Part shown: positions 3,676-55,658 of the stretch, one piece after another
Layout of the letters: the number at the start of each line of letters is the position of its first letter
How positions within the stretch are numbered: the stretch's first letter is position 1
Assembly: GCA_964637465.1 (NCBI GenBank)
Contig: CAZWTE010000001.1
Coordinates: forward strand, 1 to 57,328
From: an uncultured Gammaproteobacteria bacterium
Lineage (GTDB): Bacteria; Patescibacteriota; Microgenomatia; Daviesbacterales; UBA10151
Length of the DNA stretch: 57,328 nucleotides
Direction: 5' to 3'
Translations under genes and position numbers: made by a program
The notes under the pieces: generated by a model
Told to the model about the DNA's origin: nothing
The model's input: only the letters and a program-made list of their open reading frames with translations
Databases searched by the model: none

Positions 3676-5328
3676 ATGAAACGATCCTTTTTGATCCCGC
3701 TAATTTTAGTTCTGATAACCTTACCGACAATCTTACCTTTTTTTAATAACAAATTTTTTTATACCCAGGATTATATTTTTATAGCCAGGTTACAACAGAT
3801 GAGCGCCGCCCTTTTTGATGGGCAATTCCCGGTCAGGTGGGCGCCGGATTTACGGTATGGTGAACCGATTTTTAACTTTTATGCCCCGCTGCCTTATTAT
3901 ATAGGTGCAATAATTCATACTTTAGGTTTTAATATTATCTGGTCTGCTAAGATACTTTTTATTCTCTCCGCTATATTATCCGCAGCCGCCATGTATATTT
4001 TAGCAAACCGGTTATTTGGTAGAACTGCCGGTATTTTGGCAGCGGTTTTATATACTTATGCTCCATACCGGGCAGTCGATATGTATGTCAGGGGGTCTTT
4101 ATCAGAAACCTGGGCTTTTATCTTTTTCCCTTTAATTTTTTACAGTTCTGTTATATTAGCTGAAAAAGTAAATCTTAAGCGCTTAAGTCTGCTGGCACTT
4201 TCTTTGGCAGGATTATTTCTAACTCACAATGTCACTACTTTAATGTTTTTGCCGTTCTTATTTTTGTGGTGGGCCTATCTGGTAATCCGGGGAAAGAAAT
4301 GGCAGAGCATGTTACATCTGTTTTTAGCATCGCTTTTAGGGTTTAGTCTGGCTGCTTTCTTTTTATTGCCGGCTGTATTTGAAAGAGACTTAATTCAAAC
4401 TAAATATTTAATAGTCGGTTATTTTAATTTTCGGGCCCACTTTGTGGCTTTCAAACAGTTTTTTTCTTCATTTTGGGGTTATGGCTCATCGCTTTGGGGA
4501 CCTGATGACGGATTGTCTTTTCAGGTAGGCTTAGTAAATTTTGCCGTTTTGTTTATAGCGATTGTTTTAGGAATTTTCTACAGAAAAAACAGCAGATTTT
4601 TAGGACTACTTTTAATATTAGGAGTAAGTTTTCTGTTATCCTTATTTTTACAGCATAATAAATCAGCATTTATCTGGGAAGCTATTCCCTTAATGGCTTT
4701 TATCCAATTCCCCTGGCGTTTTTTGGGCATATCGGTTTTTATTGTTGCCTTGGCAGGCAGCGCTGTTGCTCCTTATTTAAAAAATAAATTACGACCTGTT
4801 TATTTCATTCTAATAATAGCCGCTGTTTTATCAACTTTAATTTACTTTAGACCGAAAGATTATGTTGACGACTCATTTTTTAATAAATTCTTAAATACTG
4901 AAGCTATGCATAAGGGTGTGGATTTAACTAAAGATTATCTGCCAATCTGGGTTGAAACAGTTGACGGCGGGAGGTTTGATATTCCCAGGGCAGAACAGGG
5001 TGAGATTGATGTATCAAATCTGCAGGTAAATTCCATTTCCCAATATTTTTCTGTCAAAGTAAACAAAAACAGCTTGATTGAAATGCCAATTACTTATTTC
5101 CCGGACTGGGAAGTAAAGGCAAATAATGAGATAATCCTACAAAGCTCCCCTTCAAAAACGGGGCTTATCAGGTTTGAACTGCCAAAAGGCGATTATAATG
5201 TGGCAGTTCGGTTTAAGGATACATTTATCAGAACTTTAGGCAATATAATATCCCTGGGTTCAATATTTTTAGTAGTAGTTATTTTAGTGCATGAACGGTC
5301 CAAATGGGGGAACCCTAAAAGAGAATAA
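3676..5328 (+). CDS. Polytopic membrane protein, PTPS_related/COG5617-like (predicted GT-C-type glycosyltransferase)
   Basis: 550 aa. The N-terminal signature is YTQDYIFIARLQQM...GQFPVRWAPDLRYGEPIFNFYAPLPYY. The C-terminus has a beta-rich module (ITYFPDWEVKANNE...YNVAVRF) followed by a terminal TM helix, as in YfhO-type proteins. Confidence 0.7.
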   Translation: MKRSFLIPLILVLITLPTILPFFNNKFFYTQDYIFIARLQQMSAALFDGQFPVRWAPDLRYGEPIFNFYAPLPYYIGAIIHTLGFNIIWSAKILFILSAILSAAAMYILANRLFGRTAGILAAVLYTYAPYRAVDMYVRGSLSETWAFIFFPLIFYSSVILAEKVNLKRLSLLALSLAGLFLTHNVTTLMFLPFLFLWWAYLVIRGKKWQSMLHLFLASLLGFSLAAFFLLPAVFERDLIQTKYLIVGYFNFRAHFVAFKQFFSSFWGYGSSLWGPDDGLSFQVGLVNFAVLFIAIVLGIFYRKNSRFLGLLLILGVSFLLSLFLQHNKSAFIWEAIPLMAFIQFPWRFLGISVFIVALAGSAVAPYLKNKLRPVYFILIIAAVLSTLIYFRPKDYVDDSFFNKFLNTEAMHKGVDLTKDYLPIWVETVDGGRFDIPRAEQGEIDVSNLQVNSISQYFSVKVNKNSLIEMPITYFPDWEVKANNEIILQSSPSKTGLIRFELPKGDYNVAVRFKDTFIRTLGNIISLGSIFLVVVILVHERSKWGNPKRE

Positions 5329-6146
5329 TGAAACGGCTTGTAACATCGAATATATATTTTTTAATTGGTTTGATACTAACCTTAATCTTGCTGTGGCCGC
5401 TTTTTACCGCTCCTTATTTTACCCATCATGATGATGTGCAGGTTATCAGGGTTTATGAGATGGATAAATGTTTTAAAGACGGCCAAATCCCCTGCCGTTG
5501 GGTGCCGGACTTAGGCGGGTTATACGGATATCCAATTTTTAATTATTATGCTCCGCTGCCTTATTATTTTGGAGAATTAATCTATTTGTTAACCGGCAGC
5601 CTGTTAATATCTGCAAAAGTGATGTTTGCCTTCAGTTTTTTAGCAGCGTATGTCTTTATGTATCTTTTAGCCGCAAAACTTTGGGGTAAAATGGGTGGTG
5701 CCCTTTCCGCGATTTTTTACAGCTTCGCACCATATCATGCACTTGATTTTTATATCAGGGGAGCGATGGGAGAAATGTGGGCTTTAATGTTTTTCCCGTT
5801 AAGCTTATGGGCCGCAACTAGACTAGAAGAAAAATCCGGCATTTTAAACCTACTATTGTTTGGAGCTGCATTAGCTGCGCTTATGACATCTCATAATTTA
5901 TCTGCCGTAATCTTTCTGCCGGTTGTTTTAGTTTGGATAGTAATAATATTTTTGAAAAGAAGAAACAAACGTTTTTTGTGGTTAGGTTTAGGTTCGGCAA
6001 TAATTGGGATCATGCTGTCGGCGTTTTATGTACTGCCTGCCATGCTTGAAAAAAACTTAGTGCATCTGGAAACTATGGTAGGAGGGTATTTTTCTTACAC
6101 AGAACACTTTAAAGGGGTGAAAAAATTATTTTTGGAGAGGTCTTAG
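5328..6146 (+). CDS. N-terminal fragment (272 aa) of a PTPS_related paralogue interrupted by an in-frame TAG; probable pseudogene
   Basis: Tandem paralogue of 3676..5328 (THHDDVQVIRVYEM...GQIPCRWVPDLGGLYGYPIFNYYAPLPYY). It ends at TAG 6144-6146, where the paralogue has Trp. It shares a TAATG junction with the upstream gene. Confidence 0.75.
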   Translation: MKRLVTSNIYFLIGLILTLILLWPLFTAPYFTHHDDVQVIRVYEMDKCFKDGQIPCRWVPDLGGLYGYPIFNYYAPLPYYFGELIYLLTGSLLISAKVMFAFSFLAAYVFMYLLAAKLWGKMGGALSAIFYSFAPYHALDFYIRGAMGEMWALMFFPLSLWAATRLEEKSGILNLLLFGAALAALMTSHNLSAVIFLPVVLVWIVIIFLKRRNKRFLWLGLGSAIIGIMLSAFYVLPAMLEKNLVHLETMVGGYFSYTEHFKGVKKLFLERS

Positions 6147-6308
6147 GAATATGGTTCATCAGTCAGGGAAGTCCCGGGCGGAGAAAAGGACGGTCTTTCT
6201 TACCAAATCGGTTGGGTACACCTGCTGGGCTGGTTTCTGGCACTGGTCACTATTAAAGCTTCATGGAAGAAGAACAAACAAACTTCTTTTATTATCATAC
6301 TTCTTTCT

Positions 6309-7037
6309 ATGGCAACTATCTTTGCGGCTTTCCTGATTCACCCAAGATCGGAATTTGTTTGGAAGATAATTGATCCGTTGAAGTATTTGCAGTTTCCGTG
6401 GCGGTTTTTGCTGTTAATTATTTTTTTCGTGTCACTTTCCTCAGGCAGTCTCTTTTTATCAGACGTTAAAAAAAGACGATTAATTTGGACTGCCTTGGTA
6501 TTGCTGGTAGTTGTTTTAAACTTTTCTTATTTCAAGCCGGAGAAATTTATTCAGACAAATGATCAGAAACTTTTAAGTGGGTTAGACTGGGATAAGCAAA
6601 TCAAGCGGTCAATCTTTGATTACTTGCCTATATATGCAAAAGAGCCGCCGGCGGAGCTTGCTAAAGAGAGATACCAAATTTTAACCGGGGACAGCAGGAT
6701 TTTTGATTTTAAAGAAGGAACAAACTGGTTAACTTTTAAAACAGAAACTCGGGAACATACCATTATCCGCCTGTCGCAATACTATTTCCCTGATTGGAAA
6801 ATATTTGTAGACGGGGAAGAGGTTAAGGTGGAGTACAAAAATAACAGTTTAGGCCTGATGACTTTTATTTTAGGCAAGGGTAACCACATAATCCAGGCCA
6901 GGCTTTATGATACACCTGTCAGGACTATTGCCAATTTAATTACTCTGGCGGGCATTGCAATAGTAGCAGTTTTATTTTTGATTTCTTCAGGCAGGATTAG
7001 GAAGTGGATAACATACTACAGGGAGAGAATGAATTAA
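6309..7037 (+). CDS. C-terminal fragment of the same interrupted PTPS_related paralogue; homology actually resumes at nt 6147
   Basis: Same reading frame as 5328..6146 with no further stop between 6147 and 7037. EYGSSV..DGLSYQIGWV aligns to GYGSSL..DGLSFQVGLV of the paralogue. FPWRFL and YYFPDWKIFVDGEEV plus a terminal TM helix are also conserved. ATG 6309 is merely the first Met. Confidence 0.75.
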   Translation: MATIFAAFLIHPRSEFVWKIIDPLKYLQFPWRFLLLIIFFVSLSSGSLFLSDVKKRRLIWTALVLLVVVLNFSYFKPEKFIQTNDQKLLSGLDWDKQIKRSIFDYLPIYAKEPPAELAKERYQILTGDSRIFDFKEGTNWLTFKTETREHTIIRLSQYYFPDWKIFVDGEEVKVEYKNNSLGLMTFILGKGNHIIQARLYDTPVRTIANLITLAGIAIVAVLFLISSGRIRKWITYYRERMN

Positions 7038-7041
7038 AATT

Positions 7042-8517
7042 ATGGATGAAAGTGTTGAGCAAATTGATCCAACTGAGGAGTTAACAACAGAAGCCATTAA
7101 GAAAAAAGCGGTTAAGGGTGCGGCGGTGCTGACAGGGAGGATGATCCTAATGCAGCCTATAAATTTTTTTTCAATGGCGCTGCTGACTGCTTTTCTGGCT
7201 CCTTCAGAGTTCGGTATCTACTTTATCGTATCAGCCGTTAAGAATTTCTTGGCTTATTTTAGCGATATTGGTTTTGCTCCGGCTTTAATCCAAAAAAAAG
7301 AGCAACTGACTGATATAGAACTGAAAACCATTTTCACGGCGCAACAAATGTTGATTTTAATAATAGTAACGATTGGTTTTATATTCTCCCCCTTTATACA
7401 AAGTATTTATCATTTAAACCAGCAGGGAATTTTTCTATTTTGGGCGCTTTTATTTTCTTTATTCTTTTCTTCGCTTAAGACCATTCCGTCAGTTTTGTTG
7501 GAAAGGAAATTGGAATTTAATAGGTGGGTAATTCCCCAGATTACTGAAACTATTATTTTTAACTCATTGGCAGTATTTTTAGCCTGGAAAGGTTTTGGGG
7601 TAACAAGTTATACGGTAGCTGTGCTTGTAGCGGGTTTTATCGGACTTATTATTATGTATTCTGTTCAACCTTGGTTGCCGGGAATTGCTTTTTCCCTCGC
7701 CGCTTTTAAATCAGTATTGAAGTTTGGTATTCCTTATCAGGCAAATACACTTCTTGCCATGGTTAAAGATGACGGGATGATCCTATTTTTGGGCAGTACT
7801 ATTGGCACTTCGGGTATTGGGTTTTTAGGATGGGCGCAAAAGTGGGCTTATGCGCCGTTACGTTTTTTTATGGATCAGGTTATAAAAGTAACGTTTCCCG
7901 CCTTCTCGAGATTACAGGATAACAGGAAAGAACTATCAGATTTAGTTTCAAAGTCAATCTTTTTTATTTGCCTTTTAGTTTTCCCTGCTTTGGTGATGTT
8001 AGTGCTGTTGTCGCCTGTTTTGGTGCAGATTATTCCTAAATATATTAAGTGGAGTCCTGCTTTATTCGCTTTATCAATTCTGGCCGTTACCTCGGCTCTG
8101 GCAGCAATTACTACCCCTTTAACTAATACTCTAAATGCGATTGGTAAAATATCCCTGACTTTTAAGTTAATGATTATGTGGACAGTTCTGACTTGGGTTT
8201 TTGTGCCGGCACTCTCTTTTTTATACGGGGTAAACGGAGCTGCCATAGGGTTTACTTTAGTCGGGTTGAGTTCGGTTGTAGCTTTATATTTAGTATCAAA
8301 GCATGTTGATATAGACTACTTACGAAGCGTAGGTAAACCACTGTTTGCCTCAGTTTTGATGGGAGTTTTGGTATTTATGACCAGAAATCTTTTTTCTGTT
8401 TCGATATTTCAAGTAATCGGTATGGTGGCGGCAGGTTTAATTTCTTATGCAGTGGTAGTTTGTATTCTTGAACCAAAATTGCCGGTTTTGATTAAAAATC
8501 AGTTTAGGAAAAGATAA
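7042..8517 (+). CDS. Wzx-type oligosaccharide/polysaccharide flippase (MOP superfamily)
   Basis: 491 aa with about 12-14 TM helices. The N-terminal pattern KGAAVLTGRMI...LLTAFLAPSEFGIYFIV...DIGFAPALIQKKE is typical of Polysacc_synt family flippases. Confidence 0.75.
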   Translation: MDESVEQIDPTEELTTEAIKKKAVKGAAVLTGRMILMQPINFFSMALLTAFLAPSEFGIYFIVSAVKNFLAYFSDIGFAPALIQKKEQLTDIELKTIFTAQQMLILIIVTIGFIFSPFIQSIYHLNQQGIFLFWALLFSLFFSSLKTIPSVLLERKLEFNRWVIPQITETIIFNSLAVFLAWKGFGVTSYTVAVLVAGFIGLIIMYSVQPWLPGIAFSLAAFKSVLKFGIPYQANTLLAMVKDDGMILFLGSTIGTSGIGFLGWAQKWAYAPLRFFMDQVIKVTFPAFSRLQDNRKELSDLVSKSIFFICLLVFPALVMLVLLSPVLVQIIPKYIKWSPALFALSILAVTSALAAITTPLTNTLNAIGKISLTFKLMIMWTVLTWVFVPALSFLYGVNGAAIGFTLVGLSSVVALYLVSKHVDIDYLRSVGKPLFASVLMGVLVFMTRNLFSVSIFQVIGMVAAGLISYAVVVCILEPKLPVLIKNQFRKR

Positions 8518-11500
8518 TGAGAAAGTTATTGTTTTTAGTGTTTTTTTTATTTTCGCTAATTTTAGTACCCCGGACTCTTGCTCAAAATAATTCTTTCATT
8601 TCAGTAGTAAATCCAGTTAGAGGGAATGATTTTTGGGACTTAAAGGATCAAAAGCCTGAAACTGCGGTAATTGGTCAAAGTGAAATATTAAATAAATTTG
8701 GTTTATCTGCCACCTGGTTAATCAGATTTGATGCGCTGGAAGATAAAAAAATTATTGAAGCAATGAAGGATAGATTATCTGATGAAAAGGGATTGTTTTT
8801 AGAAGTCACACCAGCTTGGACAACTCAAGCAAATGTTGAATATCACCAATCTGGTAGCTGGCATGCGGCAGGCAGCGCATTTCTAACCGGGTACGAAAGA
8901 GATGAACGGGAAAAATTGATAGATACAGCTTTTATTAAATTTAAAAGTATATTTGGCTATTTTCCTTCTTCAGCGGGAGCCTGGTGGATTGATGGTTATT
9001 CCCTAGGTTATATGCAAAAAAAGTATGGTCTATCTGCAGCTTTGATTGTTTCTGACCAATATTCTACAGATAATTACCAAATTTGGGGACAATACTTTTC
9101 AACCCCGTACTACCCGTCTAAAAAAAATGCACTTCACCCAGCTCAAAGTCTGGAAAATAAACTGGATGTAGTCATAATGCAGTGGGCACCAAGGGATCCG
9201 GTTAACAGTTATGGAAACGGAGTAATGGAAAGCACGTTCTCCGTACAGGCAAATGATTATATTGATTATCATAATCTCGATACAAAATATTTTTCAACAC
9301 TTATTGATGTTTATATAAAACAAAAATTTAATAAATTCTCGCAACTGGTAGTTGGTCTGGAAAATTCTTACAAGTGGAGTAAATATTCTGATGAATATCA
9401 AAAGCAGATAAAGGTTTTATCTAAAAAAAGAAATTCCGGTGAACTTGCAATTATTTCTTTAAAAGATTTTGCTGGTTGGTATAAATCAAGTTTCCCCAAG
9501 CTTTCTCCGGAACAGCTGATTATTGCCGACGACCCGTTAGGAGGAGTTAAAAAAAGTATCTGGTATATGAACCCTTATTACAGAGCGGGTTGGTTTTATA
9601 ACTTAGATGGTTCGGTATTAAGGGATATCAGACAGTATATTGACGGTGAAGAGGAGCTTTGTTCTAAGAGCAGGTGCGACAGTGTTAATTTTGCAACTTC
9701 AGCCACCAGGGTTTTAGATGAGGTAAGTTTCGGCCATAAGTGGATAATTGACCAGGGGAAAATCAGTGATCTTGAAGCGGAAAGAAAGGATGAAGAATTT
9801 ATACTTAGTTACAAAAATGAAGCAGGGAACTTAAGGAAAATAGGATTTTTGCCACGGGATATCAGTATCGACGGAAAAATCTTTTCCATTGACGGAGCAA
9901 TACTTAATGTCACTAAAAAGGAGGATATATTAGTATACAATACTGCCGTATCGGAGAGTTTCCTAAATTGGTCGTTTGTTTCTGTGACGCTGAAGATTTG
10001 TCAGTTTGTTATATTTTTAATATTTGCAATTATTTTACCCGGATTTGTATTAACCAACAAAGTTTTTAATAAGGATACGTCTGTTTTACTAAGGTTGTTT
10101 GTGTCCGCAACAGCAGGATTAGTGGTACTTACCCTGCTTTTTTATATAAGCAGCTTGTTTCATATCAAGCCGGTTATTTTTGTTTACTTCCTGATAAATT
10201 TTATTATCTTTTTCCGTTTCAAATTTTATGACCATCTGGTTAATCTGCCGGCAATAAAAAGCCCTTCTAATTTAATTCCCGTTTTGTTAATTTTAATGGG
10301 GACTGCTTTCCAAGCAATTCCGACATTTAAAAGCGGATTGAACTTTAGTTATGGTTTAGGTTTTTGGGGGCCCAATACTCATGACGGGATCTGGCATATA
10401 GCGCTGGTAAATCAATTGATTAAGTCGGTGCCGCCCGAAAACCCGATTTATTCCGCAGTAGTATTAAAAAATTACCACTTCTTTTATGATCTATTTATTG
10501 CGGCTACAAATTATTTTTCAAAAATTCCGGTTGGCGATTTAATATTTAGGTTTTACCCAATCCTGTTTTCTCTGATGCTTGGAATAGGCTCTTATTATTT
10601 AGTAATAAGGCTTTTTAATAATAAGACTGCTTCATTATTTAGCCTTTATTTAGTCTATTTTGCCGGCAGTTTTGGCTGGATAGTGGAGTTTTTACGGGAA
10701 AGGCATTTTGGGGGAGAATCTGCTTTTTGGGCTAACCAGTCAGTTTCATTTAATTTAAATCCACCCTTTGCAGTGTCTTTGGTAATTATAGTTGCATTAA
10801 TACATATCATTTTTTCCCGACCGGGAAATTTTGTTTTAACGGTAATTTTAGCGGGCAGTCTGATAGGTTTTAAATCTTACGGCGCGGTTTTATTTTTAAT
10901 ATCAATACTGCTTATAGGAATAATAAAGAGACAGATTCCTTATGTGTTTATTTTTATCGGAGCTGCAATAATTTCCGCCGGAATATTTTTGCCTAATTTT
11001 GACACAAGCTCAAGCCTTTTGATTTTAGCCCCATTTTGGTTTATTCACGCAATGATTGATTCTCCGGACCGGGTCGGGTGGACCAGGATTACCTTAATGA
11101 GGGAAGCAGGTTTTATTACAAGTAATTGGCTTAAAATATCGGTGGCAGAGATTTTGAGCTTATTATTATTTATCGCCGGCAATTTAGGCCTAAGAGTGAT
11201 TAGTCTGCTATCGCTTATTAAAATAAAAGGGATAATTAAAGACGAAAAACTTTTATTTATTTTTATATTTGCTTTTCTTTCATTTCTGATCCCTATCTTA
11301 TTTATCCAGTCGGGGAATCCTTGGAATACCATCCAATTTTCTTACTATGGTCTTTATATGGCTGCTATAATAAGCGGAGAGGTTCTTGTTTTAATAATTA
11401 TCAGATTACCAAAGTATGCGGCGGTTTTGATAGTACCGATGGTAATTATCCTGGCGCCAATTAATTCGGCCGTAACAGCCATCGGGTATTTAGGTCAAAA

Positions 11501-11918
11501 GCCGCATGCTTTTGTGCCTTCAAAAGAACTGGAAGCATTACAGTTTTTATCAAATCAGCCGGATGGAGCAGTATTAACTTATCCATACAATAGTAAATTA
11601 AAACAGAAGATTTCTGAACCATGGCCGATATTGGCATATGACAGTACGGCTTATGTTGCTGCTTTATCTAAAAAAAGCGTCTACCTGGAAGATGAGCCAC
11701 AAAATCTGATTTTGCTGACAGATTATAAAAAAAGGGTTGTTGCCTCAAAGGATTTTTTCTTAAAACCAATTACGGAAAGTACAAAATTTTTACAGGATAA
11801 CAAGATAAAATACATTTATCTGCCGAAGATACATAATGTCCGATTGGATGAAAGTGCTGCAAGTATTAAAAATATTTTTGAAAACGAAAAAGTTGTTATT
11901 TATGAGGCAAATATTTAA
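8517..11918 (+). CDS. Large fusion protein: a secreted domain of about 480 aa of unknown function joined to a polytopic module of an unnamed GT-C-like family (HDGxWH...NYHFF motif)
   Basis: 1133 aa with signal peptide MRKLLFLVFFLFSLILVPRTLA|QN. A hydrophilic N-domain is followed by many TM helices carrying GFWGPNTHDGIWHIALVNQL...ENPIYSAVVLKNYHFFYDLF. The C-terminal soluble part (ELEALQFL...NKIKYIYLP) is shared with 14396..16390. It has a TAATG junction with the flippase gene. Confidence 0.7.
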   Translation: MRKLLFLVFFLFSLILVPRTLAQNNSFISVVNPVRGNDFWDLKDQKPETAVIGQSEILNKFGLSATWLIRFDALEDKKIIEAMKDRLSDEKGLFLEVTPAWTTQANVEYHQSGSWHAAGSAFLTGYERDEREKLIDTAFIKFKSIFGYFPSSAGAWWIDGYSLGYMQKKYGLSAALIVSDQYSTDNYQIWGQYFSTPYYPSKKNALHPAQSLENKLDVVIMQWAPRDPVNSYGNGVMESTFSVQANDYIDYHNLDTKYFSTLIDVYIKQKFNKFSQLVVGLENSYKWSKYSDEYQKQIKVLSKKRNSGELAIISLKDFAGWYKSSFPKLSPEQLIIADDPLGGVKKSIWYMNPYYRAGWFYNLDGSVLRDIRQYIDGEEELCSKSRCDSVNFATSATRVLDEVSFGHKWIIDQGKISDLEAERKDEEFILSYKNEAGNLRKIGFLPRDISIDGKIFSIDGAILNVTKKEDILVYNTAVSESFLNWSFVSVTLKICQFVIFLIFAIILPGFVLTNKVFNKDTSVLLRLFVSATAGLVVLTLLFYISSLFHIKPVIFVYFLINFIIFFRFKFYDHLVNLPAIKSPSNLIPVLLILMGTAFQAIPTFKSGLNFSYGLGFWGPNTHDGIWHIALVNQLIKSVPPENPIYSAVVLKNYHFFYDLFIAATNYFSKIPVGDLIFRFYPILFSLMLGIGSYYLVIRLFNNKTASLFSLYLVYFAGSFGWIVEFLRERHFGGESAFWANQSVSFNLNPPFAVSLVIIVALIHIIFSRPGNFVLTVILAGSLIGFKSYGAVLFLISILLIGIIKRQIPYVFIFIGAAIISAGIFLPNFDTSSSLLILAPFWFIHAMIDSPDRVGWTRITLMREAGFITSNWLKISVAEILSLLLFIAGNLGLRVISLLSLIKIKGIIKDEKLLFIFIFAFLSFLIPILFIQSGNPWNTIQFSYYGLYMAAIISGEVLVLIIIRLPKYAAVLIVPMVIILAPINSAVTAIGYLGQKPHAFVPSKELEALQFLSNQPDGAVLTYPYNSKLKQKISEPWPILAYDSTAYVAALSKKSVYLEDEPQNLILLTDYKKRVVASKDFFLKPITESTKFLQDNKIKYIYLPKIHNVRLDESAASIKNIFENEKVVIYEANI

Positions 11919-12846
11919 AAATCACATTTTTATTGCCATTTTAGCTTATCTTTTTATTGTCGGACTGGCTACGGTTCCTGTTTATGGTTTCTTACAAAAG
12001 ATTAAGCTGGCGAATCAGGCAAATCAAGAGCGTTTCTCGGTTTATCAAAATCTTAAGATTACAGAGAAACAGTTTACAGGAAACTTACAGAAAGTGACTT
12101 GTGAAGGCAATTTATTTTTCCAGGCAGGAGTTCCAATAACCGCAATCCATATTAACAAAGATAATCTTTATCTTTCCCAAGCAGATAATCAGCTGGCGGT
12201 TATTGATTTGATTGCCCCTGATTATCCTGCAAAATTCCCGGTGCCTGTTTTAACTGATATTTATTCCGATACCAGTGATGTTTATGGTACAGATTTCTTT
12301 GGTGACAGAGTCGTCAGGCTTGTTATCGGAAAAGAAGAAGTTGTCGTCGAAAAAGTTTATCCCAAGATTGGCCGGGCTTCAGCTTTAACCAGGGATTCTA
12401 AAGGTTATTATTATGTTTCCGGTTACTCCTCAGGGAATATCACTAAAATAATTGGAAGGGATGGTTTCCTTTTCCTTTCGGATTTGGATAAAATTGTTGA
12501 CCTGGAAGCGAGCGGATCCGGTCGTTTACTAGCGGCGCGCTACGGCACCCAGCCGGCACTTATCAGTATAGATTTAAATGAAAAGAAGCAGACAATTATC
12601 GAAAATGATAAAAGTATTTCATCGCTTTCTTTTGACGGAGATTCCTTCTGGGTAGCATATGAATATAATGGTCAGTCTCAGATCGGAAAAGTGATAGACG
12701 AAAGATTGGCCGGCATTCAGCCTTTGAATTGCCCCTTTCCTTTAAAAATTGCCGTAGGGCAAGATAGATTTTTCTATACCTCTCTTAATGATAGCGAAGG
12801 GAAGGTTTATTGGATTAATAAAAATCTCCAAAAAAACGGCAAATAA
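11902..12846 (+). CDS. Membrane-anchored hypothetical protein, beta-propeller-like repeats
   Basis: The ORF-track start at 11836 lies deep inside the upstream gene. ATG 11902 gives MRQIFKNHIFIAILAYLFIVGLATVPVYGF, an N-terminal TM anchor. The remainder is hydrophilic with repeated strand-like segments (LYLSQADNQLAVIDL, YYYVSGYSSGNITKI, FWVAYEYNGQSQIGKV, FFYTSLNDSEGKVYWI). Confidence 0.5.
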   Translation: MRQIFKNHIFIAILAYLFIVGLATVPVYGFLQKIKLANQANQERFSVYQNLKITEKQFTGNLQKVTCEGNLFFQAGVPITAIHINKDNLYLSQADNQLAVIDLIAPDYPAKFPVPVLTDIYSDTSDVYGTDFFGDRVVRLVIGKEEVVVEKVYPKIGRASALTRDSKGYYYVSGYSSGNITKIIGRDGFLFLSDLDKIVDLEASGSGRLLAARYGTQPALISIDLNEKKQTIIENDKSISSLSFDGDSFWVAYEYNGQSQIGKVIDERLAGIQPLNCPFPLKIAVGQDRFFYTSLNDSEGKVYWINKNLQKNGK

Positions 12847-14395: not shown

Positions 14396-16390
14396 ATGGT
14401 TACCGCTATTTTTCTGCAGGTTATTTTGGGGATAGGTTTTTTAATTTTAACCCTGCTTTGTTTAGTATTGCCCGGTTTTGTTGTTTTGCGGAAATTTATA
14501 CCTGATTTGGATGATCTGGAAAAGTTTACGGTAGCGTCCGTCTTTGGTCTGGTTATATTTACTTTACTAGCTTACTTCTTGGCGGCGGTTCATCTGCGGT
14601 TTTTGATGTGGGGTTTTCCTGTGCTGGGTATATGGTCGTTATACAAATTCAGAGGGGAGATATTATCATACAGGCCAAAAATTACTCATAAGATATTTTT
14701 CCTTTCAGTTTTTATTATAGGAATAATCGGCATGGTGGCAGTTAATGCTCCTTCCGGGTTTCCATACAGGGACGGAATTTATTTTTGGAGCTCTCATGGA
14801 CATGATGGGGTTTGGCATCTGGCTTTAATGGAAAGCATGAAAACAGAGGTATTCCCTTTCCAAAATCCTGAACTTTCCGGCCACAGGTTACAAAATTATC
14901 ATTTTTTTGTGGATCTTTTAATGTCGGAATTTGGCAGAATATTCAGTTTTTCTTTTTTGGATATTTACTTTAGATTTATGCCGGTTGTATTTGCAATTTT
15001 ATTGGGGTTGGCAAGCTTTATATTTGTCAGGGCCTGGAGGAGGTCAGAAACAGCCGGAATTTGGGCAATGTTTTTTACTTATTTTGCCGGCAGTTTTGGT
15101 TATTTGCTGTATGTCCCGACCCACAAGAGTTTGGGAGGGGAGTCGATATTTTGGGTATCTCAAACACAATCCGTTTTAGGGAATCCTCCCCATGCTGCCG
15201 CATTTATAATTGTTACAGTGTTTTTATTTAGCCTTTTGAAGTATTTAACAAACAGAAAATTTATATATTTTTTTCTTTGCGCAATTTTGGGCGGCTTGGT
15301 GATCGAGTTTAAAGTTTACGCAGGAGTTTTAGTTTTGGGAGGACTGCTATTAATAGCGATTTATGAATTACTGACTAAAAAAATATTTAAAACTCTGCTG
15401 TTATTTTTAGCGACATTTGTTACCGCCCTGGTTATTTATCTTCCCAGCAGCCAAAACTCTCAAGATTTTTTACTTTGGCAACCCTGGTGGTTTATCAGGA
15501 CAATGGTGGTAGCGCCTGACAGATTAAACTGGATGGATCTGGAGCTTAGGAGGCAAACGTATATTGATGATGAGAATTGGAAAAGGGTTATACAAGTGGA
15601 GGTGACCGCATTTTTAATCTTTCTTTTCGGGAATTTGGGGATGAGATTCTTGGGGTTTTGGACTTTTGCCAGGAAGGTCAAACAAAACATTTTTAAAAAT
15701 ACTTTTGACGTCTTTTTTCTAAGTATTACCATTGCTGCATTTTTTATTCCGGTATTTTTTCTGCAGAAGGGAGTTGCTTGGAATACTATCCAATTTAACC
15801 AGTATTTTTTACTGCTGTTTGGTTTTCTGGCGGCAATCTCCGTAACAGATTTGTCATCCCTGGTAAAGAATACTGTTTTAAAATGGTTAATTGTAGCAAC
15901 GGTAATTATGCTATCCATACTAACCCAGTTAGGTCTGCTTTGGCAATTTTATTCTAATCCTCCATTGTCGAAAGTGTCTAATGAAGAGCTGGCAGCCTTA
16001 AGCTTTTTAAAAGAGCAGGAGTTAAAGGATGCGGTTATTCTAACAGCCCCTTTTAATAAATATGAACGAGATAAATATAATTATCCGCCTGTACCAATAT
16101 ATGCCTGGTATGATACAGGTTACGTTCCCGCATTTTCTGGTAAAAAAGCTTTATTGTCAGACGAAGAGCAGGTTAATATCATGGGGTATGATGTAAATAA
16201 ATTAGTGCGGGACAGAGTTGAAGCATTTGAAAGCATAAACTCTCAAAAGATGAATGACTTCCTGAAAAATTATAATATTGACTACATATACCTGGTTTGG
16301 GATCAGAAAATTGCTACCGGCAGCAGTTATCTTAATGCTGATTTAGTCTTTGAGAACAAAGACGCGAAAGTTTTTAAAGTCAGGAGATGA
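14396..16390 (+). CDS. Polytopic membrane protein of the unnamed HDGxWH...NYHFF family (predicted GT-C-like)
   Basis: 664 aa. FWSSHGHDGVWHLALMESM...FQNPELSGHRLQNYHFFVDLL aligns with 8517..11918. The shared C-terminal soluble region is ELAALSFL...YNIDYIYLV. Confidence 0.65.
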   Translation: MVTAIFLQVILGIGFLILTLLCLVLPGFVVLRKFIPDLDDLEKFTVASVFGLVIFTLLAYFLAAVHLRFLMWGFPVLGIWSLYKFRGEILSYRPKITHKIFFLSVFIIGIIGMVAVNAPSGFPYRDGIYFWSSHGHDGVWHLALMESMKTEVFPFQNPELSGHRLQNYHFFVDLLMSEFGRIFSFSFLDIYFRFMPVVFAILLGLASFIFVRAWRRSETAGIWAMFFTYFAGSFGYLLYVPTHKSLGGESIFWVSQTQSVLGNPPHAAAFIIVTVFLFSLLKYLTNRKFIYFFLCAILGGLVIEFKVYAGVLVLGGLLLIAIYELLTKKIFKTLLLFLATFVTALVIYLPSSQNSQDFLLWQPWWFIRTMVVAPDRLNWMDLELRRQTYIDDENWKRVIQVEVTAFLIFLFGNLGMRFLGFWTFARKVKQNIFKNTFDVFFLSITIAAFFIPVFFLQKGVAWNTIQFNQYFLLLFGFLAAISVTDLSSLVKNTVLKWLIVATVIMLSILTQLGLLWQFYSNPPLSKVSNEELAALSFLKEQELKDAVILTAPFNKYERDKYNYPPVPIYAWYDTGYVPAFSGKKALLSDEEQVNIMGYDVNKLVRDRVEAFESINSQKMNDFLKNYNIDYIYLVWDQKIATGSSYLNADLVFENKDAKVFKVRR

Positions 16391-18029: not shown

Positions 18030-20435
18030 CTAAAATCTTCGGATTTTGATTGTAAAGACAGAAATTAAAATTATTGATAACAGACTTGCCAGTGATATTT
18101 TCAAACCGGCATCAAATGATTTTGGCCAATATTTAAATACAACTTCGTGAGATCCGGCGGGGATTTTGATAGCCCTAAAGATCAGGTTGACAGGACTGAT
18201 ATCAGTTGGTTTGTCATCGATCGTTGCTTGCCAGCCAGTTTCATATTGGTCAGCCAGGATTAATACCTCATCATCTGCTGTGTCTGTTTTGACCTTAACT
18301 ATATTGGGAGAATAAAAAGTGGTTGTTACGCTTCCTTGACCGGAAACCGTAGAGATTTTTAGATCATTTGATAGCATGCCTGTTTCTTTAGGGTTAAAGC
18401 TTTTATCCTCCATAAATTTATCCCCAATTTCTTTAGTTGAGGCTTTGATAATTTTTTTTGCCAGGTAAGCCCGATCTTTTGCGTGAGGATTTTCTAAAAC
18501 AGCAGAGGATCTATCTTGAAAAACTACTTTTAGGTCAGTTTCCTTAAATTTGTAATTTAATAAATCGCCGGGGATCTGGCCATAACGGTCACGCAGGATA
18601 GCGATAAAATATTTAACATTTGCCGCGTCCAGATAAGGTGATTGGTAGCCGGAAGCAACCTCGGCATATCTGCCGGTTGTCCCAAAGCGGATGTCGCCTC
18701 CGTTTAAAAAATGCATGAATTTGGCGTATCTGCTAAGATAAATAGGATCATAACCCTCGATTGAATATAACTGATAAGCAGTCCAAGTATTGGGCGGTAA
18801 TACTTCAGCATATTCACGTCCTGTTCTGAACAATCCCTTTTGTTTCTGTAGGAACTCTAGCGAGGGGGTTTTGGGAAAAATTAAATTATTTGGGACAAAA
18901 GGATTAAATTTCAAAAAGTATCTGCCAAGATCCAAGATCATAAGAATAAGGAAAACAGAAAAAAATATTGTTAGTTTAGTTGAATGTTTTGATTTAATTC
19001 GGTTGATGATAAGCGAAAATAGCAATAAAATTGAAGTAAAAGCAAGCGGAACCAGACTATTTTTTGCGGCAATCAAAAAATTTCGTAGCGCATAGTCGTA
19101 ATTGTTTAAGTAGAATTTTAAATATTGCCCGTTTGGCGCCCAAGCAATAATTTCTCCAATATAGAAATATGTCAGAAGCGTGCCCCCGATTATACCAATG
19201 ATGGCAGCCCAGGACCAAAGTACAGTTTTACGCAAAAAGGGGAAATCGTGGTGTTTTAAGATATGATCGATTGCCAAGACAGAAATCATGCCGGTAGAAA
19301 AGAGCACGACAAAGAGCATCCTGCTGGCGTAAGAAGATGTCAGTAATGGAATCTTCAGATTATAGAAAGCTTGAGAAAGAGGGTTGTCAAATGCAGCAAT
19401 CAAACTAAACAAAAATAATAAAGAAAAGAAAAGTATATCCTTAGACCTGATTTTTATAACAGCATAGATTAATAATGGTAAAGAAAGTATGCCTAAAAAG
19501 CCGCTTGTTTCTGAATAATTAAGTGTGCCCCAGTAATTTCTTGTTACTGTATTACCAAAATAGTCCGGGATAAAGAATTTAAGTCCGTCCTTAATATTTA
19601 GTAAGCCAAAGTTAGCATCTTGAGTATAAGAATCTGCTTGTCTGATTGAATTGGATAACAGGTCAAAACTGGGTAGTAATTGCAATGCTGTTAAACCGAC
19701 AGATCCGAAAAACGCCAAAAACAAAATAGTAGTTTTTATGGTTTTGTTTTTGTTTCCCCAACAAAACCATAGACAATATGAAGATACAACAATAAAAGTA
19801 TAGGTGGTAATTTGGGCATTTCCAGCCAGAATGACCGCTGATAAAGAGAGAATCAGCAGAAATACAAACCTGAACTTTCTCTCTATGATAAATTTACTGA
19901 CTGCATATAAAGCAAGAGGCAACCAGGCTATTGCGTGACCGGCGGTGCCTAACTCTAACCAGGTAGCCATTAATCCTCCTAAGGAAAATATGACTGCACC
20001 AATCAGCCCTGCTAGTTTCGATCTGACAGATAAAGATGCGAATAAATAAAAAGTAAGTGCGGCAATGAGTGTTTGGGAATAAATATAAAGTCCCCAGCCC
20101 AAATACTTGGGAAGCAGCAGTAAGATATTTAATGGATAAAGAGTGGCAGAATGATAAGTGGCAAGTAGGGGTGTACCCATAAATGAATATGGATTCCACA
20201 ACGGCCACTGCCAATTTTTGAAGGATTCTAAGCTTAAGTATTTCCATAAAAAGAATTGCGAAAATACATCGGAAATCAACGGGTTTTGAACGGGGAATTT
20301 ATAATAGTCTAACCAGGGAGAGTAGCTGACGATTAGCAGATCGCCCGGAAAGGGGATTTTTCCAAAAAAAAATAATTTATAATAAATAGCACTGACAATG
20401 AGGGTTAGTAAGAAAAAGGGGAATAGTTTTTTCAC
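18030..20435 (-). CDS. YfhO-family polytopic membrane glycosyltransferase
   Basis: 801 aa with a GTG start. The N-terminus has FPGDLLIVSYSPWLDYYKFPVQNPLISDVFSQFFLW. The C-terminal module QYETGWQATIDDKPTDISPVNLIFRAIKIPAGSHEVVFKYWP plus a terminal TM helix is the architecture I associate with YfhO. Confidence 0.75.
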   Translation of the reverse strand: MKKLFPFFLLTLIVSAIYYKLFFFGKIPFPGDLLIVSYSPWLDYYKFPVQNPLISDVFSQFFLWKYLSLESFKNWQWPLWNPYSFMGTPLLATYHSATLYPLNILLLLPKYLGWGLYIYSQTLIAALTFYLFASLSVRSKLAGLIGAVIFSLGGLMATWLELGTAGHAIAWLPLALYAVSKFIIERKFRFVFLLILSLSAVILAGNAQITTYTFIVVSSYCLWFCWGNKNKTIKTTILFLAFFGSVGLTALQLLPSFDLLSNSIRQADSYTQDANFGLLNIKDGLKFFIPDYFGNTVTRNYWGTLNYSETSGFLGILSLPLLIYAVIKIRSKDILFFSLLFLFSLIAAFDNPLSQAFYNLKIPLLTSSYASRMLFVVLFSTGMISVLAIDHILKHHDFPFLRKTVLWSWAAIIGIIGGTLLTYFYIGEIIAWAPNGQYLKFYLNNYDYALRNFLIAAKNSLVPLAFTSILLLFSLIINRIKSKHSTKLTIFFSVFLILMILDLGRYFLKFNPFVPNNLIFPKTPSLEFLQKQKGLFRTGREYAEVLPPNTWTAYQLYSIEGYDPIYLSRYAKFMHFLNGGDIRFGTTGRYAEVASGYQSPYLDAANVKYFIAILRDRYGQIPGDLLNYKFKETDLKVVFQDRSSAVLENPHAKDRAYLAKKIIKASTKEIGDKFMEDKSFNPKETGMLSNDLKISTVSGQGSVTTTFYSPNIVKVKTDTADDEVLILADQYETGWQATIDDKPTDISPVNLIFRAIKIPAGSHEVVFKYWPKSFDAGLKISLASLLSIILISVFTIKIRRF

Positions 20436-35648: not shown

Positions 35649-36804
35649 CCGTATAAAGTTTAATTCGCCAATTTTTAAAGTTCTCCTTATTTTTTTAACC
35701 TGGCGGTTTTTATTGGAGGTAATCTTTCTTTTTTCAATGAATTTTATTCCACTGGGGTATAAAGACCGCTTTTTAGGGGGCGGCCATTTTAATTACAGGG
35801 TTTCACCCCAACTTTTTTCCTGGGCCAATTTTGACGGGGAGCATTATTTGTCAATTGCGATATTTGGTTATAAAAATTTAGAACAGGCTTTCTTCCCTGT
35901 TTATCCTCTTTTGATATCATTTTTTGCCAAGCCTAATCCTTTTGATTTACTCCCTTCGCTGGTAAATTCCACAATAACAGGCTTAATTATTTCTAATGTA
36001 TCATTTGTTCTTGCCCTAATATTTCTTTGGGAACTTATTAGAATTGATTTTCCGAAAAAGATTGCTTACTTGGCCGTTATTCTCATATTACTTTTTCCAA
36101 CCTCTTTTTATTTTGGGGCAGTTTATAATGAATCATTATTTTTGTTATTAACAGTATTATCCTTTTACAGCGCCCGAAAAGGTCATTGGTTTTTGGCAAG
36201 TTTTTTTGCCATGGTTTCATCTGCCACCAGAGTATTTGGTATTTTGCTTTTGCCGGCGCTTCTTATTGAGGCGTATCAACAGAAAATCAGATTATCTAAA
36301 GTGTTTTGGATTTGTCTTGTGCCGTTGGGATTAGGAGCCTATATGTGGTATTTAAATATAACAGCGAATGATCCTTTGGCTTTTTATCATTTTCAGAAAT
36401 TAGTTGGCGAGCAACACCAGGAAGGAATTATATTACTACCACAAGTATACTTTCGTTATATTAAAATGTTGACGTCAACTGCCGTACAAAACCCGATTTT
36501 TCAAACAATAGTTTTAGAACTTGGTGTAGGTTTAGTATTTTTTTTGCTTCCGATCTATGGTTACCTAAAAAAAATTAGATTATCGTATGTTGTTTATGCG
36601 ATATTAAGTTTTTTGGCGCCGGCTATTCAAGGCAGTTTTTCGTCAGCTCCCCGTTATGCGATAGTTTTATTCCCTTCTTTTTTAGCTGCTGCTTTGTGGT
36701 TTAGCGGGTGGCCAAGGGTATTGCAAATATTAATTTTTCTTCTATCTCTTTTGTTACTGATAATTGAAACAGCCTTATTCTTAAGGGGGTATTGGATAGC
36801 ATGA
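35641..36804 (+). CDS. Polytopic membrane protein, PIG-V/Mannosyl_trans2-like GT-C
   Basis: 387 aa. WANFDGEHYLSIAIFGYKNLEQAFFPVYPLLISFF matches the W.DG..Y..IA..GY....AFFP.YPLL signature of PIG-V-like mannosyltransferases. About 9-10 TM helices. Confidence 0.65.
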   Translation: MNSRIKFNSPIFKVLLIFLTWRFLLEVIFLFSMNFIPLGYKDRFLGGGHFNYRVSPQLFSWANFDGEHYLSIAIFGYKNLEQAFFPVYPLLISFFAKPNPFDLLPSLVNSTITGLIISNVSFVLALIFLWELIRIDFPKKIAYLAVILILLFPTSFYFGAVYNESLFLLLTVLSFYSARKGHWFLASFFAMVSSATRVFGILLLPALLIEAYQQKIRLSKVFWICLVPLGLGAYMWYLNITANDPLAFYHFQKLVGEQHQEGIILLPQVYFRYIKMLTSTAVQNPIFQTIVLELGVGLVFFLLPIYGYLKKIRLSYVVYAILSFLAPAIQGSFSSAPRYAIVLFPSFLAAALWFSGWPRVLQILIFLLSLLLLIIETALFLRGYWIA

Positions 36805-38042
36805 GAAAAATCTTAGGTTTAACTTCACACCCTCTTTTTGCCGGAAGTTTTATTATGATTTTTGGAAGTAATGCAGTCAGCTTTTTAAATTATTTATACC
36901 ATTTAATAATGGGAAGACTATTAGGACCGGCAGGTTACGGGGAATTGGCAGCAATAATTTCATCTATCGGACTTTTTGGTATCATTCCCTCGTCAATTAC
37001 TCTTGTAATAATCAAGTATGTCTCTGCTGCAAAGGATGAAAAGGAAACGGGAAGTTTGATAGTATGGTTTAAGAATAAAATCTTTTTATTGTCATTAATA
37101 TATAGCCTTCTGATTTTGATGCTCACACCTTTTATGGGATCTTTTTTGAAAATTCCGGATCTGTCCTATTTTATACTTCTTGCCGTATTTACTTTTTTTT
37201 CATTACAGTCTTCGTTAAACAGGGCCATCTTACAGGGACTTTTAAAATTTAAAGAGATGGTCTTTAGCGTATTAACTGAAAGTGCTTTAAAACTCCTCGT
37301 CAGTATAATTCTGGTATATCTTGGATTTAAGGTTGGAGGCGCTATCCTAGCTCTTGTTATTTCTGCAATACTGGGATTTTATATCACTATTCGTTATTTG
37401 AAACAAAGGAATCTTTCAGTTGATGATAAAGTTATACCTGATATAAGAGCAATGCTGAAATTCAGCATTCCCGTAGCTCTGCAATCTTTTGCGATAACTT
37501 CACTTTATTCATCTGATGTAATTTTAGTAAAACATTTTTTTTCTTCCCATGAGGCGGGGATCTATGCCGCGCTTTCAAACCTGGGTAAAATAATCTTTTT
37601 TGGCGCTGGTCCAATTGGAGCCGTGATGTTCCCGCTGGTTTCCCAAAGAAAGGCAAGAGGTCAGGTTTACGGGCAGATTTTTATATATAGTTTCTTCGGG
37701 ACGTTAATGCTTGCAGGCAGCGTTTTATTGTTTTATTGGTTTTTTCCTGATCTTGCCATAAGTCTGCTTTATGGCAAGCTTTATTTAGAAGCTTCGAATT
37801 TATTGGTTTGGTTTGGAATATTTATCAGTTTGTTTACTCTCTCGACGCTTCTTATCAGTTATGGTCTTTCATTGGGCAGGACTTCCATAGTCTATTTACC
37901 GCTTATTGCAGCCTTGGTCCAAATTATTCTGATATGGTTTTTTCACCAGAGTTTATTTATGGTCATATTAATCTCTATTGCAGTGAATGCTTTACTACTG
38001 GTAGCCTTACTTATATACTCTACCTATGCAAAGCGAAATTAG
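36792..38042 (+). CDS. Wzx-type oligosaccharide flippase (MOP superfamily), second copy in the window
   Basis: 416 aa with about 12 TM helices. The N-terminus has NYLYHLIMGRLLGPAGYGELAAIISSIGLFGI. Confidence 0.65.
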   Translation: MDSMRKILGLTSHPLFAGSFIMIFGSNAVSFLNYLYHLIMGRLLGPAGYGELAAIISSIGLFGIIPSSITLVIIKYVSAAKDEKETGSLIVWFKNKIFLLSLIYSLLILMLTPFMGSFLKIPDLSYFILLAVFTFFSLQSSLNRAILQGLLKFKEMVFSVLTESALKLLVSIILVYLGFKVGGAILALVISAILGFYITIRYLKQRNLSVDDKVIPDIRAMLKFSIPVALQSFAITSLYSSDVILVKHFFSSHEAGIYAALSNLGKIIFFGAGPIGAVMFPLVSQRKARGQVYGQIFIYSFFGTLMLAGSVLLFYWFFPDLAISLLYGKLYLEASNLLVWFGIFISLFTLSTLLISYGLSLGRTSIVYLPLIAALVQIILIWFFHQSLFMVILISIAVNALLLVALLIYSTYAKRN

Positions 38043-39978: not shown

Positions 39979-40956
39979 ATGAAGAAAAAAAAGAAAGTAT
40001 TGGTGACCGGAGCCGGGGGGTTCATCGGTCATCATTTAGGCACATACTTAAGGAAAAAAGGTTATTGGGTGCGTGGTATAGACATAAAGCTTCCCGAATT
40101 CAAAAAATCTGATGTTGATGAGTTTTTAAAATTAGACTTAAGAGAGAAAAAAAGTGCTTTAAAAGCCACCGAAGGAATGGATTATGTGTATGCCTTGGCA
40201 GCTGATATGGGAGGAATGGGTTTTATTTCCTCAAATCATGCCACTATTTTATACAATAATGCCACTATTAATCTTAATACAATAGAGGCGGCTAAAATAA
40301 ACAAGGTAAAGAGGTATTTTTACTCATCTTCTGCCTGTATTTATCCCCACTACCGGCAGACTAGGAGCAAACTAAAACCCTTAAAAGAGGAAGATGCATA
40401 TCCGGCACAGCCGCAGGATGCTTATGGATGGGAGAAATTAGTTTCAGAAATTCTTGCCAAGTATTACCGTGAGGAACATGGTTTAGAAACACGTATTGCC
40501 CGTTTTCATAATATTTTTGGTCCCTTTGGAACCTGGGATGGAGGAAGGGAGAAGGCACCGGCCGCCATCTGCAGAAAAGTTGCGATAGCCAAGTTAACAG
40601 GTAAAAAGGAAATAGAAATTTGGGGAGACGGAAAACAGACAAGGTCTTTTTGTTATATAGACGATTGCCTGGAAGGAATTTACAAATTAATGACGTCTGA
40701 TTTTGCCGAGCCTCTAAATATTGGTCAAGATAGGATGGTGACAATAGATCAACTGGTAGATATTATTTCTAAAGCTGCCGGTGTAAAACTTAAGAAAAAC
40801 CATATCCCCGGACCTCAAGGCGTCAGGGGCAGGAATTCCGATAACAGTAAATTGCGGCAGGTATTAAAATGGGAACCAAAGATTTCTTTGGAAGAAGGTT
40901 TGGCAAAAACATATCAATGGATCGAAGATCAGGTAAGAGCTAAACTTACTAACTAA
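39979..40956 (+). CDS. gme: GDP-mannose 3,5-epimerase-like SDR (GME family)
   Basis: 325 aa. Long collinear matches to the plant GME sequence as I remember it: TGAGGFIG, LAADMGGMGFISSNH, YNN, YSSSACIYP, PQDAYGWEKL, RFHNIFGPFGTWDGGREKAPAAICRK, WGDGKQTRSF, HIPGPQGVRGRNSDN. Confidence 0.8.
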   Translation: MKKKKKVLVTGAGGFIGHHLGTYLRKKGYWVRGIDIKLPEFKKSDVDEFLKLDLREKKSALKATEGMDYVYALAADMGGMGFISSNHATILYNNATINLNTIEAAKINKVKRYFYSSSACIYPHYRQTRSKLKPLKEEDAYPAQPQDAYGWEKLVSEILAKYYREEHGLETRIARFHNIFGPFGTWDGGREKAPAAICRKVAIAKLTGKKEIEIWGDGKQTRSFCYIDDCLEGIYKLMTSDFAEPLNIGQDRMVTIDQLVDIISKAAGVKLKKNHIPGPQGVRGRNSDNSKLRQVLKWEPKISLEEGLAKTYQWIEDQVRAKLTN

Positions 40957-41441: not shown

Positions 41442-41488
41442 CTTGATTTTCAACTGCTGCATCTATTTTTTTTTGCTTTTGTTATTTT

Positions 41489-43970: not shown

Positions 43971-44073
43971 TTTAACTGGTGGTTAGCTTATCCCATATAA
44001 AAAATATTGTCAATGAGATTTCTTTTACGGGCTTGATTTTTATTCACTAGTCTAGTAGGATCATTGCTATTCT

Positions 44074-46361: not shown

Positions 46362-46362
46362 A

Positions 46363-46866: not shown

Positions 46867-46888
46867 TGCTTTCTGTCATAAGTAGTAT

Positions 46889-55638: not shown

Positions 55639-55658
55639 GATTAGATAATACTTTAGAT

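Follow-up and report, generated by a model that had tools for sequence, protein, structure and literature searches.

Among the closest described counterparts of the gene considered here are two kinds. The oligosaccharyltransferases (OSTs) STT3, AglB, and PglB, of glycosyltransferase (GT) family GT66 (PF02516), act on flipped lipid-linked glycans. They have a polytopic core with an acidic residue in its first outside loop and, after the core, an extracytoplasmic domain at the C-terminus. The second kind are BcsZ, PslG, and PelA, periplasmic glycoside hydrolases of families GH8, GH39, and GH166, which are encoded in exopolysaccharide synthase operons as separate polypeptides. The surface glycans of candidate phyla radiation bacteria, whose way of life is attachment to other cells, are to our knowledge almost unstudied. 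Described here is P0001, a gene for a protein of 1133 amino acids (aa) at positions 8517-11918 of contig CAZWTE010000001.1 (assembly GCA_964637465.1; Daviesbacterales, Microgenomatia, Patescibacteriota). The whole stretch analysed, positions 1 to 57,328 of this contig, is termed the window. The product is comparable to the second kind of system in that a putative glycan-cleaving or trimming domain is encoded with a membrane glycan-assembly machine, and it differs in the fold of its hydrolase-like domain and in that this domain and the GT-C enzyme are joined in one chain.

P0001 most probably encodes a membrane enzyme of the GT-C(A) fold that bears a DUF3863-like barrel at its N-terminus and serves in glycan assembly; this assignment of fold, architecture, and general role is given a probability of about 70%. 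The GT-C family so defined is unnamed in Pfam and NCBIfam and appears confined to one class of Patescibacteria. DUF3863-like barrels gain their first functional context, a recurrent fusion to GT-C enzymes on the outer face of the membrane. Should the barrel prove catalytic, one chain would unite the transferase with an activity that cuts or remodels glycans. D623 and E96/E282 would then be testable residues for a family whose structure, 3LM3, has been solved but not explained.

The membrane part of P0001 is shared with a stand-alone paralog. The open reading frames (ORFs) of P0001, of P0002 (14396-16390, plus strand, 664 aa), and of a third, broken gene were confirmed, and P0001 residues 487-1132 align with the entire P0002 at 31-32% identity (E 1.6e-82 to 3e-82). 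P0002 consists of the membrane module and the C-terminal domain and is without the N-domain; no further close copy of the membrane module occurs in the genome. Orthologs of P0002 are found across Daviesbacteria at 52-78% identity, with a syntenic gene of 663 aa in GCA_016184225.1 (locus L007). In an alignment of 119 sequences (A1; 59 fused and 60 stand-alone homologs), D623, W626, and H627 of the motif HDGxWH and N652, Y653, H654, and D658 of the motif NYHFFxDL are invariant in both subfamilies. Other invariant positions are R678, G733-E734 (of GGES), N748-P749-P750, K786, R852, R862, E878, Q931, N937, Q940, D1059, and Q1062. Both proteins end in a common soluble C-terminal domain, which closes with IKYIYL or IDYIYL. 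A preliminary description, made from the letters of the window, had proposed that the genes at 8517-11918 and 14396-16390 share loop motifs, a transmembrane (TM) bundle, and a C-terminal domain, and that the longer protein adds a signal peptide and a hydrophilic N-terminal domain. The first proposal agrees with the 32% identity and the invariant motifs, and the second holds as well. The signal peptide (8517-8582, plus strand as are all parts of P0001; residues 1-22) is of the cleavable Sec type, with the cleavage site between RTLA and QN; Ala occupies position -1 in 59 of 59 homologs, and position -3 is V, A, or T. The domain that follows is about 460 aa long. More than 100 clusters keep the fusion, with identities of 57-70% across the full protein and 62-75% across the N-domain and with lengths of 1110-1176 aa.

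Sequence searches put a name to neither module: Pfam and NCBIfam gave no match to the membrane module at E<=1, and searches of the Protein Data Bank (PDB) with single proteins and with a 59-sequence close-ortholog profile gave no match for either module. Placement of the membrane module comes from its predicted structure. An AlphaFold2 (AF2) model of full-length P0001 (pLDDT 86.6, pTM 0.69) matched six solved GT-C(A) families in Foldseek with a probability of 1.00, namely STT3A (9n9j_I and 8b6l_I, E 5.2e-8 to 1.5e-7), AglB (E 1e-6), DPY19 (E 2.4e-6), PglB (E 1.1e-5), AftA (E 3.5e-4), and ArnT (5ezm, E 9.6e-4). By this model the membrane module belongs to an unnamed family of enzymes with the GT-C(A) fold.

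The topology is compatible with such an enzyme. Short loops rich in Lys and Arg (514-522, 568-582, 767-771, and 804-806) are interleaved with long, motif-bearing ones (605-671, 729-748, 828-870, and 929-934). By this pattern the N-domain and the C-terminal domain lie outside, as do the HDGxWH/NYHFFxDL loop and all further conserved polar motifs. It also implies that three additional N-terminal helices precede a core of ~11 TM helices and that the whole protein is N-out, C-out. In the AF2 secondary structure the three extra helices are residues 487-513, 523-547, and 553-567 (9975-10217), and distant family members, which start at about P0002 residue 70-125, are without them. The core spans residues 583-991 (10263-11489). 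Its first outside loop (EL1; residues 605-671, nucleotides 10329-10529) follows the fourth helix and contains HDGIWH, with the D623 codon at 10383-10385, and NYHFFYDL, so that the invariant D623 and D658 lie in the same long loop. Further outside-loop motifs of the core are GGES/NPP (729-750), PDRVGW (849-855), and QSGNPWNTIQ (931-940). A C-terminal alpha/beta domain of the AF2 model, predicted to be extracytoplasmic (residues 998-1133, 11508-11918), contains the invariant Y1046, D1059, and Q1062. In the general GT-C model, a core of 11 TM helices has an acidic motif (DxD, DD, or a single D/E) shortly after TM1 (PMC6801728). D623 is such a residue, lying in the long, predicted outside loop, and it is kept in the family of the third gene too.

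The best structural matches of the module are the GT66 enzymes STT3, AglB, and PglB (E 5e-8 to 1e-5, ~650 aligned columns), with which it has in common the polytopic core, the C-terminal extracytoplasmic domain, and the acidic residue in the first outside loop. By analogy, an action on flipped lipid-linked glycans may be supposed for the module as well. Unlike GT66, the HDGxWH family has no sequence similarity to these enzymes and no WWDYG motif, and it has three extra N-terminal helices, the barrel domain, and the motifs HDGxWH, NYHFFxDL, GGES, and PDRxxW. The STT3 model of Pfam (PF02516) gave no match at E<=1, and across the genome the strongest STT3 match is at another locus and stays under the cut-off. 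ArnT and the PMT_2 proteins (GT83/GT39, PF13231) share the GT-C(A) fold, and an N-domain of this family is also found on some PMT_2 proteins from elsewhere. The HDGxWH family has no counterpart of the PMT_2 DE motif and does have the soluble C-terminal domain. None of P0001, P0002, and eight orthologs matched PF13231 at E<=1. A profile comparison with the PMT_2 array of the window found one weak correspondence, between TM4-EL1-TM5 of the HDGxWH family and TM1-EL1-TM2 of the array (hhalign probability 36%, E 3.7e-4). Wzy_C (PF04932) and YfhO (PF09586) likewise gave no match at E<=1; hhalign against the YfhO protein of the window returned 0.2%, and a genome-wide search for Wzy_C found other loci only. 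Membership in GT66, PMT_2, YfhO, or Wzy_C was thus considered and rejected on the Pfam results and the absence of WWDYG. The preliminary description had placed the module in no named GT-C family, which agrees with the empty Pfam, NCBIfam, and PDB sequence searches; the fold of the model is nonetheless GT-C. There was no confident assignment to Wzy, WaaL, or YfhO.

The N-domain (residues 23 to about 470, 8583-9926) was modelled separately from a profile of 70 diverse homologs (A3). The AF2 model (pLDDT 92.8, pTM 0.90) has a seven-stranded beta/alpha barrel (~23-330) followed by a beta-sandwich (~333-457). Its top Foldseek match, far ahead of all others, is 3LM3 (E 1.5e-16, TMq 0.60, TMt 0.66, 423 columns), which is BDI_3119 of Parabacteroides distasonis, annotated as a ‘putative glycoside hydrolase/deacetylase’. 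The whole N-domain superposes on it, barrel and beta-sandwich together. At the level of sequence, the A3 profile found 3LM3 as well (E 1.4e-7), through two colinear segments and with a common block of the form GYxPxS...DQ..D..G...P.YPS...PAQ; only the more diverse A3 reached 3LM3. The two proteins are 15% identical, and unlike 3LM3, a soluble Bacteroidota protein, the N-domain is membrane-tethered and fused to GT-C modules. Against the DUF3863 model (PF12979, gathering score 27 bits), P0001 had no match at E<=1 and its homologs scored 12-18 bits, and a Pfam search of the window's genome found no DUF3863 protein; neither this genome nor the control genomes provided a comparator that could be used. 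The profile and fold matches support homology to DUF3863 at the superfamily or sister-family level, and the N-domain is taken as a sister family of DUF3863 in the glycoside hydrolase/deacetylase superfamily. The suggestion in the preliminary description of a glycoside hydrolase/deacetylase-like barrel is therefore sustained by Foldseek and profile evidence for a (beta/alpha)7 barrel nearest to 3LM3/DUF3863, and the domain is neither a lipoprotein nor a solute-binding fold. The superfamily stands; the deacetylase option is unlikely, as the Asp-His-His metal site of family CE4 is absent.

Conservation was measured over 235 sequences of 30-75% identity. Thirteen polar or aromatic residues, R35, E96, Y126, R131, W156, D180, Q181, D185, W190, W223, R226, Q244, and E282, are 92-99% conserved, with the carboxylates E96, D180, D185, and E282 at 95-99%. 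Several of the conserved residues, including E96, W156, D180, W223, and E282, are located at the ends of the barrel strands in the AF2 model. Judged from sequence, this conservation speaks for a glycan-active site built on carboxylates or, at the minimum, for a site of specific sugar binding.

The survey of homologs shows the N-domain fused repeatedly to different membrane modules. Clustering at 50% gives 754 representatives of the N-domain family, and for 410 of these E is <1e-30. Architectures were surveyed in the best 150 of the 754, of which 46 match the profile of the HDGxWH module, about half of these with the full module; most of the remaining profile-matching proteins carry just the last helices and the C-terminal domain. 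Many N-domain proteins are ~600-690 aa long and consist of the N-domain, two TM helices, and the C-terminal domain of the GT-C module (hidden Markov model positions 470-659), and some are a secreted N-domain alone. In three proteins, P0315, P0327, and P0380, a PMT_2 GT-C core precedes the N-domain, from which it follows that different GT-C families recruited the barrel independently. P0244, of 1639 aa, unites a Wzx domain (Polysacc_synt_3), the N-domain, and the HDGxWH module in one predicted protein. Phyletic distribution, which had been marked for survey, can now be given alongside the more than 100 clusters of the fusion: of 401 sampled Patescibacteria genomes, seven have the N-domain and 15 the membrane module. 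The latter are of the window's own class except for one marginal match, and two copies of the module in one genome are common. No relevant paper on Patescibacteria came up in a literature search for their GT-C or OST enzymes.

The gene order around P0001 connects it to a flippase. Directly upstream is a gene for a Wzx/MOP-type flippase of 491 aa (7042-8517, plus strand; Pfam Polysacc_synt_3, E 5.6e-50), whose TAA stop (8515-8517) shares one base with the ATG of the fusion gene (TAATG). Directly downstream is a gene for a protein of 314 aa from the ATG at 11902 (11902-12846, plus strand), with one N-terminal TM helix and then an NHL/PknD-type beta-propeller. The propeller ectodomain matches the six-bladed Pizza6 designer propellers by phmmer (E 1.1e-6). 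The propeller gene starts 17 nucleotides inside the end of the fusion gene, and an identical overlap with a 313-aa ortholog is found at L007; the protein may be a partner of the fusion enzyme. The order common to the window and GCA_016184225.1 begins with two PTPS_related genes, Wzx, the fusion, and the propeller, and continues with PMT_2 (minus strand), the stand-alone paralog, a PMT_2-like gene, YfhO (minus strand), and two GT2 genes. Wzx is directly upstream of the fusion also in two more distant genomes (L002 and L006), and the pairing is kept in all four examined genomes in which the N-domain is fused to the HDGxWH module. A short N-domain homolog, P0433, is found outside any glycan cluster, so the linkage to Wzx holds for the GT-C fusions and not for the entire N-domain family.

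A model of how P0001 may work can be drawn from these features. The protein would be a three-part enzyme with all of its working parts facing the outside of the cytoplasmic membrane. The signal peptide would export the DUF3863-like (beta/alpha)7 barrel and beta-sandwich, in which a site of carboxylates, arginines, and tryptophans (with E96, D180, D185, E282, R35, R131, and R226) would replace the metal site. The three linker helices would then bring the chain back to the cytoplasmic face. The GT-C(A) core of ~11 TM helices would come next, presenting the invariant D623 in its first outside loop and all conserved polar motifs in outside loops, and the small outside domain at the C-terminus would close the protein. 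On the outer face, the core would take a sugar from a donor linked to polyprenyl-(di)phosphate and transfer it, with D623 as the candidate catalytic base and R678, K786, R852, and R862 as candidate phosphate-binding residues. The GGES loop (733-736), modelled with low confidence, may be mobile like EL5 of PglB. The fused barrel would bind the same glycan and cut, trim, or remodel it. Because the fusion gene is translationally coupled to Wzx, the most likely donor is the flipped lipid-linked oligosaccharide that Wzx delivers, used by en bloc transfer or polymerisation in the manner of an OST, although this donor is put at somewhat less than even odds. P0002 is probably the same transferase without the barrel, acting at a neighbouring step. 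A broader proposal is tentative. In it, the HDGxWH family would be a Microgenomatia-specific, Wzx-coupled terminal enzyme of surface-glycan synthesis, a second OST-like GT-C lineage without sequence kinship to GT66 that ligates or polymerises a flipped lipid-PP-oligosaccharide. The N-domain and C-terminal domain would together be a new extracytoplasmic enzyme that cleaves or transglycosylates glycans, sister to DUF3863 and with a carboxylate/arginine site, occurring either as a two-TM protein or with the GT-C core inserted between its halves.

Several observations weigh against parts of this interpretation. TM-scores to the known GT-C enzymes are modest (TMt 0.33-0.50) and show no preference for OSTs over ArnT and AftA; the acidic motif of EL1 is a lone Asp and not DxD; and WWD, of the OST hallmark WWDYG, is present in 0 of 119 family members. 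P0244 could be a true fusion or an artefact of a one-base error at a TAATG-type junction. The genome has six genes of Wzy_C, the O-antigen ligase/polymerase family, on contigs C14, C15, C29, C30, C31, and C40, so another enzyme could consume the product of Wzx; these genes are also why the argument that a genome without Wzy must use this enzyme was rejected. In favour of the interpretation, a Pfam search found no Wzy_C gene in the glycan island of the window. The four or five DPM1-like GT2s of that island could supply polyprenyl-P-monosaccharide donors instead. The core would then be the third component of a Gtr-like three-component system that transfers single sugars from such donors; its adjacency to Wzx would reflect a shared pathway only, and the N-domain would merely hold the acceptor glycan. 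Three-component systems with GT-C enzymes are widespread (PMC11127046), DPM1-like GT2 genes are indeed in the island (at 1328, 38026, 43218, and 48998), and the monosaccharide-donor enzymes ArnT and AftA match about as well as the OSTs by TM-score. The island GT2s, however, adjoin PMT_2-type or other GT-Cs, whereas the fusion gene is coupled to Wzx by the one-base overlap and the pairing recurs in every examined genome with the fusion. A Gtr-like role is judged less likely than not, and somewhat less likely than the Wzx-coupled mechanism.

The same kind of weighing applies to the N-domain, for which a search of the literature on DUF3863, 3LM3, and BDI_3119 found nothing relevant, adding to the points just listed. 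After 3LM3, the next Foldseek matches are the divergent CE4-like HP0310, ArnD (8t0j), PuuE, PA1517, and PdaC, with E-values of 8e-8 to 1e-4 for the CE4-like proteins, and GH57/GH38 barrels, of the same barrel superfamily, rank after these (E 3e-5 to 6e-3). The nearness of HP0310, ArnD, PA1517, and PdaC would suit a metal-dependent de-N-acetylase or deformylase of the CE4/NodB type, such as PgdA or ArnD, that edits the sugar before or after transfer. ArnD itself has the NodB fold and works on a lipid-linked sugar within a GT-C pathway, which sets a precedent. The CE4 matches nevertheless have TMq values of 0.28-0.39, well under that of 3LM3, and the sequence after the first strand is NPVRG in place of the CE4 TFDD. 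None of the histidines is conserved in the 235 sequences (H116 55%, H252 30%), which rules out the Asp-His-His mechanism of CE4, with its motifs TFDD, HSxxH, and LxH, and makes an enzyme of this type very improbable. The absence of the known CE4 catalytic sets is also what would be expected of a non-catalytic domain that binds carbohydrate or positions the acceptor, comparable to the carbohydrate-binding modules of EmbA-C and AftD. Trp and Tyr are conserved at many positions, as would suit a platform for sugars, and CE4 pseudoenzymes exist, with BA3943 among the Foldseek matches. Conservation of 95-99% for four carboxylates and three arginines at the strand ends, on the other hand, is more typical of catalysis than of binding, and the N-domain also occurs alone as a secreted protein. 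A pseudoenzyme is on this evidence rather doubtful, and the catalytic barrel fused to a GT-C core is preferred.

The third gene (40956-43255, plus strand; ORF pieces 40956-41441 and 41489-43255) had been grouped with P0001 and P0002 and described as broken. Neither it nor its intact orthologs gave a BLASTP match or a significant hmmsearch match to P0001 or P0002, and on that basis it was at one point taken as a non-member. A six-sequence profile of the intact orthologs reversed this view: against the HDGxWH profile it gave an hhalign probability of 95.6% (E 1.2e-8) over 565 columns, colinear from end to end, while eight further polytopic families from the window, compared with both profiles, scored 0.1-36%. 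The two profiles match in the positions of the loop Asp, a stretch rich in Pro, and the YH pair, and in each the Asp-to-Tyr spacing is 30 residues. By profile evidence the third gene is a distant relative at the level of a superfamily and not a close paralog, so the grouping survives in the wider sense only. That the gene is broken was correct for this assembly. An in-frame TGA lies at 41439-41441, where the orthologs have N or G, and beyond it frame 0 remains ortholog-like (LDFQ.LHLFF) until the frame shifts ahead of about 41489. Between the two lesions, at ~41467-41475, there are nine T in a row. In congeners the orthologs are intact (776-777 aa, 67% identity). The window copy is either a pseudogene or an assembly error.

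The best homologs of the window's proteins point to Candidatus Daviesbacteria (Microgenomates, candidate phyla radiation). The source assembly has a size of 1.10 Mb, spread over 104 contigs, and a completeness of 88%. Nearly the whole window, with a GC content of 37%, is a surface-glycan island that holds at least 14 PMT_2-type or related polytopic genes in addition to GT2 and GT4 transferases; more than half of the genes in these 57 kb encode membrane glycosyltransferases. The flippase upstream of P0001 is one of two of the Wzx type, the other being at 36792-38042. A YfhO gene is at 18030-20435 (minus strand), and sugar-nucleotide enzymes are encoded at 39979-49001. Upstream of the flippase, the second PTPS_related gene (5328-7037) is split into ORFs of 272 aa and 242 aa. 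Its syntenic ortholog in GCA_016184225.1 (L007, 6810-8519) is a single gene of 569 aa, which indicates that the window copy is interrupted and is the second broken gene of the island. At the far end of the window are two tandem pairs of polytopic paralogs (49758-53500 and 53878-57209, minus strand), 36% and 40% identical and 516-625 aa long. Neither Pfam nor NCBIfam matches them, and profile comparison does not relate them to the HDGxWH family; they are probably further unnamed membrane glycosyltransferases.

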